Positions 8,115 through 19,824 of a stretch of 64,000 bases of DNA are shown here, in pieces. Made by a program: the position numbers and the translations under genes. The first letter of the stretch is position 1; every line of letters begins with the position of its first letter. The notes under the pieces were generated by a model. That model was not told the DNA's origin. It did no database searches and worked only from the letters and a program-made list of their open reading frames with translations. Source of the DNA: Escherichia coli (lineage in GTDB: Bacteria; Pseudomonadota; Gammaproteobacteria; Enterobacterales; Enterobacteriaceae); assembly GCF_030013205.1 (NCBI RefSeq), contig NZ_CP122648.1; one strand, given 5' to 3'.

Positions 8115-9836
8115 ATGCGCGCTTTGCTACCCTATCTGGCACTGTATAAACGTCATAAATGGATGTTAAGTCTTGGTATTGTGCTGGCAATTGTCACGCT
8201 GCTCGCCAGTATCGGTCTGTTGACACTTTCCGGCTGGTTCCTCTCGGCCTCAGCGGTAGCGGGGGTTGCCGGACTGTACAGCTTCAACTATATGCTACCC
8301 GCTGCGGGCGTGCGTGGTGCAGCAATCACCCGTACTGCCGGGCGCTATTTTGAACGTCTGGTAAGTCACGACGCGACTTTCCGCGTGTTGCAGCATCTGC
8401 GCATTTATACCTTCAGCAAATTGCTGCCCCTCTCCCCTGCAGGACTGGCGCGCTATCGTCAGGGCGAATTGCTCAACCGCGTGGTGGCGGATGTTGATAC
8501 GCTCGATCATCTTTACCTGCGCGTTATCTCGCCGCTGGTGGGCGCTTTTGTGGTGATTATGGTGGTGACAATCGGGTTAAGTTTCCTTGATTTCACCCTC
8601 GCCTTTACGCTGGGCGGCATTATGTTACTGACGCTTTTCCTGATGCCACCACTGTTTTATCGTGCGGGGAAAAGCACCGGGCAAAATCTGACTCATCTTC
8701 GCGGGCAGTATCGCCAACAACTGACGGCCTGGCTGCAAGGGCAAGCTGAGCTGACCATTTTTGGTGCCAGCGATCGTTATCGCACGCAGTTAGAGAATAC
8801 CGAAATTCAGTGGCTGGAAGCGCAACGTCGTCAATCTGAACTCACCGCATTATCGCAAGCGATAATGCTGCTCATTGGCGCGTTAGCGGTGATCCTGATG
8901 CTGTGGATGGCGTCTGGCGGCGTTGGCGGCAATGCTCAACCCGGCGCGTTAATTGCCCTGTTTGTCTTCTGCGCGTTAGCCGCGTTTGAAGCACTGGCAC
9001 CAGTAACGGGTGCATTTCAGCATCTGGGGCAAGTCATTGCCTCTGCCGTACGGATCACTGACTTAACGGTTCAAAAACCGGAAGTCACCTTCCCTGATAC
9101 CCAAACTCGTGTTGCCGATCGCGTTTCGCTGACGTTACGGGATGTTCAATTCACTTATCCGGAGCAATCCCAACAGGCACTTAAAGGGATTTCTCTTCAG
9201 GTAAACGCCGGGGAACATATAGCGATTCTCGGGCGAACCGGATGCGGCAAATCAACACTGTTACAACTGCTGACCCGCGCATGGGACCCGCAACAAGGCA
9301 AGATTTTGCTTAACGATAGCCCCATAGCCAGCCTGAATGAAGCGGCTCTACGACAGACCATCAGCGTTGTTCCTCAGCGAGTGCATCTGTTTAGCGCCAC
9401 GCTGCGTGATAATCTGTTACTCGCCTCACCTGGCAGTAGTGATGAGGCTCTGGCGGAGATCTTGCGTCGCGTTGGTCTGGAGAAGCTGCTCGAGGATGCA
9501 GGTCTCAACAGTTGGTTGGGTGAAGGCGGACGCCAGCTCTCCGGTGGTGAACTGCGCCGTCTGGCTATCGCCCGTGCGCTGTTACATGATGCGCCGCTGG
9601 TATTGCTGGATGAACCTACAGAAGGCTTAGATGCCACAACCGAAAGTCAGATCCTTGAATTGCTTGCAGAAATGATGCGTGAGAAAACGGTGTTAATGGT
9701 CACCCATCGACTTCGCGGACTCTCTCGTTTCCAACAAATAATAGTGATGGACAACGGGCAAATTATTGAGCAAGGTACTCACGCAGAACTGCTTGCCAGA
9801 CAGGGGCGTTATTACCAGTTCAAGCAGGGTTTGTAA
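8115..9836 (+). CDS. cydC: Glutathione/cysteine ABC exporter CydC
   Basis: 573 aa, TMD plus ABC ATPase (GRTGCGKST, LSGGELRR); start abuts cydD stop. Confidence 0.95.
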   Translation: MRALLPYLALYKRHKWMLSLGIVLAIVTLLASIGLLTLSGWFLSASAVAGVAGLYSFNYMLPAAGVRGAAITRTAGRYFERLVSHDATFRVLQHLRIYTFSKLLPLSPAGLARYRQGELLNRVVADVDTLDHLYLRVISPLVGAFVVIMVVTIGLSFLDFTLAFTLGGIMLLTLFLMPPLFYRAGKSTGQNLTHLRGQYRQQLTAWLQGQAELTIFGASDRYRTQLENTEIQWLEAQRRQSELTALSQAIMLLIGALAVILMLWMASGGVGGNAQPGALIALFVFCALAAFEALAPVTGAFQHLGQVIASAVRITDLTVQKPEVTFPDTQTRVADRVSLTLRDVQFTYPEQSQQALKGISLQVNAGEHIAILGRTGCGKSTLLQLLTRAWDPQQGKILLNDSPIASLNEAALRQTISVVPQRVHLFSATLRDNLLLASPGSSDEALAEILRRVGLEKLLEDAGLNSWLGEGGRQLSGGELRRLAIARALLHDAPLVLLDEPTEGLDATTESQILELLAEMMREKTVLMVTHRLRGLSRFQQIIVMDNGQIIEQGTHAELLARQGRYYQFKQGL

Positions 9837-14603: not shown

Positions 14604-14622
14604 GATAGATAACTATCATTTA
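14604..14622. repeat. Putative attL core (gatagataactatcattta)
   Basis: 17/19 identical to 25213-25231. Confidence 0.5.
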
Positions 14623-15303: not shown

Positions 15304-15591
15304 TTACCGCCGCAGTCGTTCCGGCTTCTTCCACTGGTAAGTATTTTTCGCGCTCTCCCTCCGTTGTTGAGAACGGCGACGGTATGCCAGCAACTCAAGG
15401 ACTCTGGTTCGTATGTTGCGCATATCCACGCCGTTAAGCTCAATACCATCACGGCGCATCACCTCAGCAACAACACGCGCGTAATTTTCAGCGGTGACTG
15501 TATCCGGCTGCGCGGCCTGTTCGTCAGCCAACTGGCTGATTCCACCAGCACAGCGGATTAATCGCAGTATTTCAGATTCGGTCATTATCAT
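15304..15591 (-). CDS. Hypothetical protein (95 aa), island packaging module
   Basis: ORF overlaps the terS-like stop by 4 nt; no recognisable motif. Confidence 0.45.
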   Translation of the reverse strand: MIMTESEILRLIRCAGGISQLADEQAAQPDTVTAENYARVVAEVMRRDGIELNGVDMRNIRTRVLELLAYRRRSQQRRESAKNTYQWKKPERLRR

Positions 15592-16073
15592 GCCTGTTTT
15601 GCGACCTCATTCACTACGTCATTTTTTACCATCCGGCTGATAATCTGATTACACAAATCGTCAATAATTGACTGCACTCTGTTTACTGCCATCGGTTTAA
15701 GCCCGGCATCACGTGCCAGAATATTGGGGAGTTTTGCCAGTTCCTCGCTTACGATTTCCCCCCATATAGCCATCTCTTTTCGCACATCATCGGCGGGTAT
15801 GAGTTGCGCCGTTTCCTGTTCGAACTTGAGGCGTTCACGTTCGGACTGATACCAGGCCTTACGGTCTTGTGGCTCCATTTCTTCCAGTGATGCCGGAACG
15901 GGAAGATCAAGAAAACAGGTCAGAATGTCAGTCACCCGATAGAGTTTCAGCTTGTCATGCCCTCCGGCTGGCTGGATGTTTTTCAGCCTTGCCGCCGCAG
16001 TCTGACGACATATTCCCGCTATCGCCGCCAGTTGATTAATGTTCAGCATCAGATTTTTCAGTTCTCGATCCAT
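15588..16073 (-). CDS. Phage small terminase-like protein (Nu1-like HTH DNA-packaging protein)
   Basis: Start placed at MDRELKNLM (GGAGCGGGT SD); N-terminal HTH LNINQLAAIAGICRQTAAARL; layout resembles lambda Nu1. Confidence 0.55.
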   Translation of the reverse strand: MDRELKNLMLNINQLAAIAGICRQTAAARLKNIQPAGGHDKLKLYRVTDILTCFLDLPVPASLEEMEPQDRKAWYQSERERLKFEQETAQLIPADDVRKEMAIWGEIVSEELAKLPNILARDAGLKPMAVNRVQSIIDDLCNQIISRMVKNDVVNEVAKQA

Positions 16074-16226
16074 ACCCGCTCCAGAATGTTTTAAACATGC
16101 ATCTTGCGAACAACTTTCAGAAGAGGTCAAAAAATGCGCTATATGTTGAGCATAAAACAAGCAAAATTAACATGCCAAAAATAAAAATACTTAAAATTCA
16201 ATACAATATGAAGATGATGATGACGA

Positions 16227-16306
16227 ATGAAAATGCAAAAACTAGCCTTTTTCCGCGCCGCTCCCGCCCCGTGGCAGACCACTCCACCGGGAGGACCCGT
16301 AAAAAA
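16227..16306. repeat. 80 bp conserved element, copy 1 (~92% identical to 18761-18840)
   Basis: atgaaaatgcaaaaac..ccgggaggacccgtaaaaaag; lies between the capsid terminator and terS. Confidence 0.8.
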
Positions 16307-16324
16307 GGCGGCTGTCGCCGCCCT
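16299..16324 (-). terminator. Rho-independent terminator after the protease-capsid gene
   Basis: Minus strand ggcggcgacagccgcc followed by ttttttta. Confidence 0.6.
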
Positions 16325-16329
16325 TGTTG

Positions 16330-18243
16330 TCATGCTCCACTCGATTTCAGTAATCCGCGATAATCGAGGGCCGCGACACCTGCATCTATGCGCACTTTCC
16401 AGGCGACACCATCAACAGTAAAGCCCACCTGCTCCTCAAGATATGGCGTATCCATACCATCAAGATAAGCGACTTCTATTGTGTCCATCCCCTTAGCTGC
16501 GGCTACATACCATTCCTTGCTATTGGCCTTATCAAGACGTGGCTCAACAATTACTTCTGCCATATCTTTCACCACGTTAATGATGCCGGGGTTCTGATTG
16601 ATAGTGCTCTCATCACCAACCGGAAAGACTGATGACGATGACAGAATGGCGCGACGCGCGGCAGATTCCAGCGCGGCAGGGACCAGAACAAAAGCAGGGG
16701 TAATATTCAGTGAGTCGCCGTTAGCATCCTCCTGGAGGCGCATCAGCTTACGGGCTTCATCAAGCCCCACCATGTCCATATCCTTCGCAATAAGATTTTT
16801 ATGATCGGCATGGAATAACGCTTTACCATCCGTAAATTTGCCGTTGCTGGTTAACAGAAGATAAACCAGATTACCTACTGTTCTGGCGGCCGCACGCCCC
16901 ATCGCCATGGGGATTGTAGTTAACTGGGTCAGGTCATCGTTGATAATGGCCTGACGGGTAACAGAAAAAATATTACCGTATGTGGCCAGCGCAATAGGTA
17001 CACCTTTATCGCTGGTGGTGATGTATTTATATTCCGCACCTTCCGGTACTTTATCCAGCTTTGAAAAACCATTCAGACCAACGCGCTTTGCTTCATGAAA
17101 GTTTGAAAGCGATCCGGTACGCGTCCATTTCTGGAACGTTTCGCCGCTGTCCTGCCAGCCTTTCAGCACTGATTTTTCAGCACCACCAGCCAGAATATGA
17201 GAAAAATCGCTGCTGCTGTGTGTGAAAGCTGCATTAACGACCTGCGAGCGATTTAAAAAACTGCCAACACTGATACCACGATCAGTTAGTGATGCCTGGG
17301 CCATTTCAAAAAGGCTCATCATCGCGTAAGGATTTCCCCGCTCTGGGCGTTCATACCCAAGACGAGAATAAAGCCCCTGACGAATTGCATCGCCTGTTAT
17401 GTTCCCGTTACCGGCATAAATATGAGTCGGGATATTTTTATTGGATGGCGTGGACTCGCGCCCCAGCTCGTTCAACAACTTTTCACGGGCCATCTCCGGT
17501 GTACATGATGCATCCTCCAGGCACGCCATTTTGATCCCGTCGTAACGACTGCCGAACAGGCTAAACACTTCACTTATTCCGTTGATGCGCTTCTGTTCAT
17601 TACCAGCAATATTGGCTGCTCCCTGTGGCGGGGTAATCATTCCTTTAATGGTTTCAGGCATGTGTGAAAAATCTCCTGTGCGTTTCGATTCAATTCGCGC
17701 CATTGCTGTGACAGATGGCAACAATTCATCAGCAAAACCGTGCTTAAGGCATTCTTTCCCGTCCATCCAGGTTTCATCTTCCAGCATGGCGGTAATTTCC
17801 TGTGCTGATTTGCCCGTTTTTCTGGCATAAGCAGGGACTAACACGGTTTCCACCTTATCCAGCAAATCAGCATAATCACGCATATCACCAGCATTTCCGC
17901 CAGAGATACCCCACGGCTTATGTATCATCATCATGGCGTTTTCCGGCATCACAACACGATCGCCAGCCATTGCGACAACCGAAGCCATTGAAGCCGCAAC
18001 ACCATCGATATAAACCGTAATTTCTGCCGGATGATTCCGTAACAGGTTATAGATGGCGATGCCTTCAAACACGTCACCACCTGGCGAATGGATCCGCAGG
18101 TCGATATGTGAGACATCGCCCAGGGCTTTCAGGTCTTCCGCAAACTGCTTCGCGGTAATACCGAAGCCGCCAATTTCTTCATAGATGGATATTTCTGCCG
18201 CTCCGCGAACACCCAGCGCCTTAATGGTGTACCAGTGATTCAT
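16330..18243 (-). CDS. Fused prohead protease (ClpP-like) / major capsid protein
   Basis: 637 aa; N-terminal ~200 aa with ClpP-like serine-protease motif (IHSPGGDV); C-terminal ~430 aa of major-capsid size and character. Confidence 0.7.
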   Translation of the reverse strand: MNHWYTIKALGVRGAAEISIYEEIGGFGITAKQFAEDLKALGDVSHIDLRIHSPGGDVFEGIAIYNLLRNHPAEITVYIDGVAASMASVVAMAGDRVVMPENAMMMIHKPWGISGGNAGDMRDYADLLDKVETVLVPAYARKTGKSAQEITAMLEDETWMDGKECLKHGFADELLPSVTAMARIESKRTGDFSHMPETIKGMITPPQGAANIAGNEQKRINGISEVFSLFGSRYDGIKMACLEDASCTPEMAREKLLNELGRESTPSNKNIPTHIYAGNGNITGDAIRQGLYSRLGYERPERGNPYAMMSLFEMAQASLTDRGISVGSFLNRSQVVNAAFTHSSSDFSHILAGGAEKSVLKGWQDSGETFQKWTRTGSLSNFHEAKRVGLNGFSKLDKVPEGAEYKYITTSDKGVPIALATYGNIFSVTRQAIINDDLTQLTTIPMAMGRAAARTVGNLVYLLLTSNGKFTDGKALFHADHKNLIAKDMDMVGLDEARKLMRLQEDANGDSLNITPAFVLVPAALESAARRAILSSSSVFPVGDESTINQNPGIINVVKDMAEVIVEPRLDKANSKEWYVAAAKGMDTIEVAYLDGMDTPYLEEQVGFTVDGVAWKVRIDAGVAALDYRGLLKSSGA

Positions 18244-18872: not shown

Positions 18873-19295
18873 TTAAAACGGTATGTTATCCCCGTACGGA
18901 TCATCATTTCCCGCCTGTTGTTTTGCTCTGCTCAGTGCATCAGTAGCCTGCCCCTGTTGGCCTTTTTTGCCGCCCGGTCGCGCCGTTCTCGCACTGATTA
19001 CGCTGTCTGCGATAACCTGCCAGCCCTGCCGCGTCTCCCCGTTCTGTCCGGTCCACTGGCTCACCTGCATGTTACCCGCCACGCTCAGGAGTTCACCCTT
19101 GCGGTGCTTTGCCAGTGCTTCGGCCTGTCTGCCAAACGCCAGGACGGATAACCACATCGTCGCCGTTCCGTCATCTGCCTGGCTGCACGGAAGTGGGACC
19201 GCCATACTCGCCATCGTCATTTGTGTACCCTTGCTGGTGGTCTTTAACTGCGGGTCAGCCACCAGCCGCCCGTAAGCCGCTATCTGTGCTGTCAT
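18873..19295 (-). CDS. Single-stranded DNA-binding protein-like
   Basis: 140 aa; OB-fold-like N-terminus (GRLVADPQLK...), Gly/Gln-rich tail ending DDPYGDNIPF, resembling the SSB acidic tip DDDIPF. Confidence 0.65.
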   Translation of the reverse strand: MTAQIAAYGRLVADPQLKTTSKGTQMTMASMAVPLPCSQADDGTATMWLSVLAFGRQAEALAKHRKGELLSVAGNMQVSQWTGQNGETRQGWQVIADSVISARTARPGGKKGQQGQATDALSRAKQQAGNDDPYGDNIPF

Positions 19296-19537
19296 GCTGT
19301 CTGCTCTCCGGTTTTAACGTTGATGGTTGTCACCTGTTCCGCTTCGGCAATCTCCCGTTCTGTCAGCGTGGCAAAGTTTGCAGCTGCCGTTGTCATGAAT
19401 GAGCTAATCAGTTCGGGATGTGCTTTCGCATATCCTTCCCCGGCGTTGCGGTCGATGATTTTTATCGACACCCTTAACCAGTGTTCCGTCAAATCAAGGG
19501 CGTGCGATTGTGATTTTTTTGTGTGCTTCGCTGTCAT
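19292..19537 (-). CDS. Hypothetical protein (81 aa)
   Basis: ORF between the ori and the SSB-like gene; overlaps the ssb start by 4 nt. Confidence 0.45.
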   Translation of the reverse strand: MTAKHTKKSQSHALDLTEHWLRVSIKIIDRNAGEGYAKAHPELISSFMTTAAANFATLTEREIAEAEQVTTINVKTGEQTA

Positions 19538-19584
19538 AGGCTTTATCTCACAGCAGTAAATTAAAATTTTTGCGTTTTAACCCT

Positions 19585-19812
19585 TCACCTGTTCACCTTT
19601 TGATATTTTATCTTTTAATTCATAATGTTAAGGGGTGAACAGTTTCACAAAAACTATTCACCAACTGTTCACCACTGTTCACCCTTGAAGCTCAATAAAC
19701 AATCAAAAAGGTGAACAGTGAATAGTTTGGTGAACAGTTCATAAATAACTGTTCACCCTATAACATACTGATACAAAAGATATTTATGACAGGGTGAACA
19801 GTGGTGAACAGT
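19585..19812. promoter_or_regulatory. Putative replication origin: iteron cluster (at least 9 copies of GTGAACAG/CTGTTCAC) in AT-rich DNA
   Basis: Repeats at about 19587, 19634, 19665, 19676, 19710, 19729, 19750, 19794, 19803 in both orientations, immediately 3' of the primase gene. Confidence 0.65.
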
Positions 19813-19824
19813 TATTCCATAAGT

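Follow-up and report, generated by a model that had tools for sequence, protein, structure and literature searches.

What is the role of a dense cluster of short repeats that lies directly behind a helicase gene in Escherichia coli, and which element does it serve? The cluster occupies positions 19582 to 19811 of a 64,000-nucleotide stretch of contig NZ_CP122648.1 (assembly GCF_030013205.1), which we refer to as the window. An initial annotation had proposed an iteron-type replication origin adjoining the replication initiator of a self-replicating satellite. Our analysis supports this proposal, given that all of the expectations that can be examined at the level of sequence were borne out, and we consider it very probable that a 10.6-kb phage-inducible chromosomal island (PICI) located between clpS and cspD uses the cluster as its vegetative replication origin. 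The evidence consists of a PICI at a published att site, an initiator with a binding domain of the P4 alpha type, an iteron that is the type 1 repeat of satellite P4, a layout like that of both the experimentally tested origin of the PICI EcCICFT073 and the P4 ori core, and co-variation between the iteron and the binding domain. Features of this class have been published before: the layout was described in 2018, and the sequence is in essence that found in the listed PICI EcCI224.

The cluster contains nine exact copies of GTGAACAG/CTGTTCAC within 19589-19811, five of which read GTGAACAG on the plus strand and four on the minus strand, while the rate in the remainder of the window predicts 0.018 copies per 228 bp. 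Over the 64-kb window, GTGAACAG was observed 14 times compared to 1.7 expected from shuffles, and none of 100 shuffles reached 14. The conserved core of the iteron is the octamer TGTTCACC, usually in the form CTGTTCACC. Three degenerate iterons were also present (CCTTCACC at 19582, TATTCACC at 19655, and TATTCACT at 19717), and a tandem pair, GGGTGAACAGTGGTGAACAG, was found at 19792-19811, which confirms the earlier description of at least nine repeats in both orientations and partly in tandem. There was no second iteron cluster, as the other 250-bp stretches of the window held at most two copies with one mismatch allowed; elsewhere in the island, only scattered single sites occurred. The iterons lie in a 287-bp gap of 67% A+T between the stop codon of a 610-amino-acid (aa) open reading frame (ORF) and the next minus-strand ORF, and G+C content at the cluster is 30-35% versus 50-60% in the flanking genes. 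The cluster starts 13 bp past the stop codon (19825-19827) of this minus-strand 610/605-aa ORF and ends 45 bp ahead of the ATG (19537) of the following one, in agreement with the annotated position in A+T-rich DNA directly downstream of a "primase" gene. It had also been noted that the origin proposal would fall if the repeats were a generic element found across the genome. Of 5426 complete E. coli genomes, 593 carry the 287-bp region, the median being one copy per genome; it is always unannotated and always in the same helicase-gene context, and a generic genomic repeat can therefore be ruled out. A literature search for the iteron strings GGTGAACAG and TGTTCACC returned unrelated papers only.

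The 12 iteron sites recovered by the repeat scan are arranged as a 230-bp imperfect palindrome with its best ungapped dyad centre at 19695.5. Each half consists, from the outside to the centre, of a tandem pair, an A+T-rich spacer, one inverted iteron, and an inner triplet with 10- to 11-bp spacing. In the distal half, the outer pair (degenerate CCTTCACC and then TGTTCACC; 19582-19597, plus strand) is kept across 57 distinct related sequences. It is followed by spacer 1 (19598-19633; 36 bp, 83% A+T), a candidate unwinding element colinear with the 35-bp spacer of the P4 ori at 9361-9395, and by a single TGTTCACC on the minus strand (19634-19641; the plus strand reads GGTGAACA). The inner triplet TATTCACC, TGTTCACC, TGTTCACC (19655-19683, plus strand), with start-to-start distances of 11 and 10 bp, has a colinear counterpart in the P4 ori triplet at 9310-9338. 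The dyad centre falls within a central spacer of 26 bp and 73% A+T (19684-19709). In the half nearest the helicase gene, the mirror-image triplet TGTTCACC, degenerate TATTCACT, TGTTCACC (19710-19736, minus strand) precedes a single TGTTCACC (19750-19757, plus strand) and spacer 2 (19758-19792; 35 bp, 74% A+T), a second candidate unwinding element that the alignment pairs with the A+T-rich spacer in the origin of EcCICFT073. The helicase-proximal outer pair, two TGTTCACC at 10-bp spacing (19793-19810, minus strand), aligns with the first tandem pair of that origin. Folded as single-stranded DNA, the region reached -50.7 kcal/mol compared to -22.8 for shuffles (z-score -8.3). The origin region contained no DnaA box, with a TTATCCACA-like site absent even when two mismatches were allowed, no GATC site, and no perfect integration host factor (IHF) site; three IHF-like sites had one mismatch. 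An RNA gene at 19581-19809 was considered and rejected, as a permissive Rfam search of 19200-20100 gave only sub-threshold matches to plant and animal microRNA precursors (best 45.7 bits versus a gathering score of 249), which are explained by the long palindrome.

The gene adjacent to the cluster encodes an initiator-helicase of the "Pri-Rep" type (19825-21642, minus strand, with a possible extension to a GTG at 21657) with Pfam matches to D5_N, DUF5906 (the superfamily 3 [SF3] helicase core), and Pox_D5. The ORF has 610 codons, and RefSeq homologues begin five codons later at an ATG, giving 605 aa. The protein is composed of a Toprim-like N-terminal domain without catalytic residues, D5_N, the SF3 helicase, and a C-terminal winged-helix origin-binding domain. 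Residues 502-598, 97 in all, match the origin-binding domain of P4 alpha (PDB 1KA8; E 1.8e-24). Homology to SaPI5 PriRep5 (PDB 7OLA; E 2.6e-10) lies in the helicase core, and residues 150-600 are 50.7% identical to P4 alpha. The initial annotation as a primase/helicase needs one correction, in that the protein is a helicase with an origin-binding domain; no primase domain is detectable, and the name is only a family label. A Zn-ribbon or Toprim match was obtained for neither the window protein nor the CFT073 protein, whereas P4 alpha matched Zn_Ribbon_Prim and Toprim_3. The acidic residues of the Toprim domain are replaced in the window protein, and its sequence suggests a helicase-initiator with a decayed Toprim domain and not a primase. 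Homology of the N terminus to the P4 Zn-ribbon, hinted at by a MAFFT alignment, was dropped given that BLASTP of the N-terminal 166 aa against P4 alpha gave no significant match. Identity to the window protein is 69% over the N-terminal 150 residues of the CFT073 protein and only 35% over D5_N, 56% over the helicase, and 32% over the C-terminal domain, while P4 alpha reaches 63% over the helicase and 48% over the C-terminal domain. Over residues 151-600, identity to the window protein was 83-91% for vB_KppS-Ant, 38-63% for P4 alpha, and only 32-56% for CFT073. With residues 1-150 CFT073-like and residues 151-600 nearer to vB_KppS-Ant and P4 alpha, the window initiator is a mosaic, and the comparison implies recombination near residue 150.

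The relationship to P4 extends from the binding domain to its target. The GenBank record of P4 (NC_001609) annotates 16 "ori type 1 repeats," 10 in crr and 6 in ori, with the sequence TGTTCACC and the variants TATTCACC, TCTTCACC, and TGTTCACA. The octamer of the type 1 repeat is identical to that of the nine exact copies in the window, where the variant TATTCACC is present too. Recognition of the P4 origin by alpha is indicated by Ziegelin et al. (1993), as cited in PMC8628076, and by the name of entry 1KA8. Over 70 nt, the distal half of the window origin (141-209 in gene orientation) aligned with the P4 ori core at 79% (E 9e-12 against the P4 genome); both have three tandem iterons, one inverted iteron, an A+T-rich spacer of 35/36 bp, and two further iterons. 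The proximal half of the window origin is the mirror image of this P4-ori-like module. Parts of the window region also aligned with P4 crr at 71-75% over 64-75 nt. The sites in P4 are split into crr, directly downstream of alpha, and ori, 4.5 kb apart, whereas the P4-type pairing of ori with a distant crr, both of which P4 needs in cis, was not found in the island, which has a single palindromic cluster. Relative to P4, the island has thus condensed its sites into one palindrome. Both origins are without DnaA boxes. The initiators differ in that a Zn-ribbon and a Toprim primase domain of the active type are present in P4 alpha and absent from the window protein. The P4 genes sid, psu, delta, and epsilon had no match among the island proteins scanned; the island instead encodes a protease-capsid fusion and a DUF1441 protein.

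The origin of Gram-negative PICIs has been defined as the region immediately 3' of pri-rep, with two iteron sets flanking A+T-rich DNA (Fillol-Salom et al. 2018, PMC6092414). A temperature-sensitive plasmid carrying the pri-rep and ori of EcCICFT073 formed colonies at 44°C; deletion of rep abolished colonies, and deletion of ori reduced them significantly (PMC6092414). The window region has the same organization, with the first iteron 13 bp from the stop codon and mirror-image sets separated by spacers of 36, 26, and 35 bp that are 73-83% A+T. The gap in EcCICFT073 is 288 bp versus 287 bp in the window, its iterons correspond to those of the window in position and orientation, and its host island has the same gene order as the window island, whose att site is listed. 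The two differ in that each iteron is TGTCTACC in EcCICFT073 and TGTTCACC in the window, a change of two adjacent bases, and in that the C-terminal domains are only 32% identical. We know of no PICI in which the TGTTCACC allele has been tested. In the published PICI EcCI224, the gene layout and the nine iterons are those of the window island and the protein is 99% identical, and EcCIRM13514 has a protein of 86% identity with iterons that are also TGTTCACC.

The layout is also related to that of the pathogenicity islands of Staphylococcus aureus (SaPIs), in which the origin sits directly downstream of rep and has an A+T-rich centre flanked by iterons in opposite orientations, with recognition by a C-terminal winged helix (Qiao et al. 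2022, PMC9371898). PriRep5 of SaPI5 is a self-loading initiator-helicase that binds iterons via this winged helix (PMC9371898). The SaPI Rep/PriRep plan of an SF3 helicase initiator, a C-terminal winged helix, and a downstream ori is found in the window as well. However, SaPI iterons are 5-6 nt long and belong to Gram-positive hosts, the iterons in the window are 8-9 nt, and the two initiators have a homologous helicase core and unrelated sequence outside it. The initiators of theta plasmids with iteron origins (pSC101, R6K, P1, and F types) are of the RepA type, and these plasmids also employ DnaA boxes, a host helicase, and a loader. They have in common with the window origin repeated initiator-binding sites adjoining an A+T-rich unwinding region; the window origin differs in having no DnaA box or GATC and in having an initiator that is itself an SF3 helicase.

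If the C-terminal domain recognizes the iterons, the two would be expected to change together. A scan of IMG/VR yielded 80 loci with proteins 75-100% identical to the window protein, which together with reference elements gave 84 usable loci representing 41 distinct C-terminal domains; one further locus with a frameshifted gene was set aside. Iterons were counted in the 400 bp downstream of the helicase stop codon. The 84 loci contained either three to nine copies of TGTTCACC and zero of TGTCTACC or three to six copies of TGTCTACC and zero of TGTTCACC, and the iteron type followed the C-terminal domain subtype without exception. Iterons of the TGTCTACC type are used by a subgroup (L072-L076, L078, L079, L081, and L082) whose proteins share about 77% identity with that of the window. 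Its members carry a 5-residue insertion, PDKGR, in the C-terminal hairpin (wing) and differ at residues 517, 519, 522, 546, 576, 579, and 583. The insertion and the substitutions between residues 517 and 583 are, on the basis of this comparison, candidate specificity determinants. Across 57 distinct origins of the TGTTCACC type, conservation was 0.909 in the iteron columns compared to 0.791 in the spacer columns (permutation p 0.001).

More distant elements show related arrangements with other sequences. Serratia phage Scapp (L094, 2911-3408), a true phage, has GAAAAGTGCAA repeats in both orientations after an 839-aa alpha-like primase gene, with the core AAAAGTG present eight times and the 9-mer AAAAGTGCA five times; the arrangement is alike and the specificity different. 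A distantly related Pasteurella element has repeats with a TTCAC core. In PICIs at other sites (EcCI042, L086 6225-6424; L090 and L091), a RepA-family helicase replaces the alpha-like protein, and AAAGTGAG-type repeats occupy the equivalent gap, the origin having been swapped together with the initiator.

The element that hosts the origin is a PICI. The 11-bp att core ATGATAGTTAT is given for PICIs inserted between cspD and clpS (Fillol-Salom et al. 2018, Table S1, PMC6092414), and the window contains two exact copies, one at 14609-14619 on the clpS side and one at 25218-25228 on the cspD side, which delimit an island of 10.6 kb. Between 15.3 and 25.1 kb, every ORF is on the minus strand. The island thus has the features that define a PICI, namely int, alpA, unidirectional genes, a length of 10.6 kb, and a PICI att site. 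The tyrosine integrase is encoded at 23806-25053, and its homologues are annotated as tyrosine recombinases in the related loci L001 and L005; the AlpA-family regulator lies at 23177-23386 (Pfam Phage_AlpA, E 2.9e-16). A DUF4222 protein was also found within the island by domain scan. A 302-aa minus-strand ORF at 22258-23166 is probably not a gene, as RefSeq annotates only short genes in the equivalent stretch: an Icd-like gene on the island strand and, on the other strand, genes for a YlcI/YnfO protein and a small hypothetical protein. Directly after the origin, an 81-aa ORF (19292-19537), annotated as hypothetical in L001, had no Pfam or NCBIfam match. It is followed on the same strand by genes for an island-encoded SSB (18873-19295; Pfam SSB, E 7.3e-16), a 637-aa fusion of ClpP-type protease and major capsid protein (16330-18243), and a DUF1441/small-terminase-like protein (15588-16160), the last two identified by domain scan.

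The helicase-origin unit has been joined to more than one set of downstream genes. In strain TCM3e1 (L001), a unit identical over 801 bp is joined to a packaging module (L001, 3826-6356) with a separate capsid protein, a decoration protein, and a small terminase, while the module in the window (15588-18243) consists of the ClpP-protease/major-capsid fusion and the DUF1441 protein. The island has also been deposited as a free molecule. PLSDB record NZ_CP148328.1, a circular "plasmid" of 10,790 bp, is a complete island that runs from the integrase through the DUF1441 protein. Its ends fall exactly at the one att core that it contains, and it is colinear with the window island at 91-98% identity; it is without the 81-aa ORF and SSB segment. 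This record shows the excised circle at a copy number high enough to be assembled, which is consistent with autonomous replication.

We propose the following sequence of events. After induction and excision, Pri-Rep would bind the TGTTCACC iterons through its C-terminal winged-helix domain, and the two mirror-image iteron sets would place protein assemblies on either side of easily melted DNA. Pri-Rep could then melt the A+T-rich DNA and load itself as a hexameric helicase, with replication probably proceeding in both directions. Primers would probably be supplied by the host primase, given that both a Zn-ribbon and catalytic Toprim residues are missing from the window protein, and the island SSB and host polymerase would finish replication.

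Several considerations weigh against the assignment of the cluster as the origin. The loci behind the co-variation and conservation results are related to one another, so that the counts overstate their independence, and the iteron switch was seen in two lineages only. The published plasmid-maintenance experiment was performed with the TGTCTACC allele of CFT073 and not with the allele in the window, and record NZ_CP148328.1 is evidence of a circular form but not of replication. A scan of 19200-20100 found neither a sigma-70-like promoter nor a terminator, and transcription therefore probably reads through the origin. Finally, the iterons directly downstream of alpha in P4 form crr, an auxiliary cis element, with ori 4.5 kb away, and position alone is therefore no proof that initiation occurs at the cluster in the window.

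This last point underlies the most serious rival, in which the cluster is a crr-like auxiliary element that acts by stimulation, regulation, or copy-number control through pairing, with initiation elsewhere in the island. The partial alignment of the window region with P4 crr would fit such a role as well. However, the island offers no second cluster as the site of initiation, only single scattered sites; the distal half of the region, including the A+T-rich spacer, is colinear with the P4 ori core; and the homologous region of EcCICFT073 is the ori that was deleted in the published test. We therefore consider an auxiliary role of this kind unlikely. The repeats could also be operators for the downstream operon (the 81-aa ORF, SSB, capsid, and terS-like genes), bound by the helicase protein or by another regulator, given that the region sits between two co-directional gene blocks and that autoregulation via iterons is common among initiators. 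This explanation is less likely still, since the absence of a promoter-like or terminator-like site noted above speaks against it, the iteron type tracks the helicase C-terminal domain and not the downstream genes, which vary beside an identical origin, and the same sites occur in the proven origin of P4. A regulatory or autoregulatory side-role of the iterons may nevertheless exist and would be compatible with origin function. The presence of a small-terminase-like protein in the island, together with the occurrence of packaging sites in satellites, raises the question of whether the repeats are a pac or cos signal. We regard this as scarcely credible, because the identical origin in the TCM3e1 island is accompanied by another terminase and capsid module, the same octamer is found in P4, which is without such genes, and the iteron type, again, tracks the helicase domain.

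In summary, the cluster at 19582-19811 very likely serves as a PICI origin. It marks a mobile island carried by roughly one in nine of the complete E. coli genomes and is of use in annotation; as a system it is not of a new kind. Our findings may go beyond the published literature in showing that the iteron of this PICI is the P4 type 1 repeat, paired with a P4-like binding domain in an origin colinear with the P4 ori, and that there is a clean two-state specificity switch tracking changes in the winged-helix hairpin; they may also do so in suggesting that the "primase" is an initiator and helicase whose Toprim domain has decayed. Comparison of the two iteron specificities in closely related proteins offers a natural test case for the way in which a winged helix acquires a new target. 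We tentatively suggest, as a possibility that we hold to be rather doubtful at present, that one subfamily of E. coli PICIs has its origin specificity in common with P4-like satellites, through TGTTCACC and a 48%-identical domain, to the extent that satellites of the two families residing together might activate, titrate, or inhibit one another's origins. A change to TGTCTACC, which is recurrent and in one lineage accompanied by the 5-residue wing insertion, might then represent an escape from such interference, and the PICI protein, having lost its primase, might depend on the primase of the host or helper.
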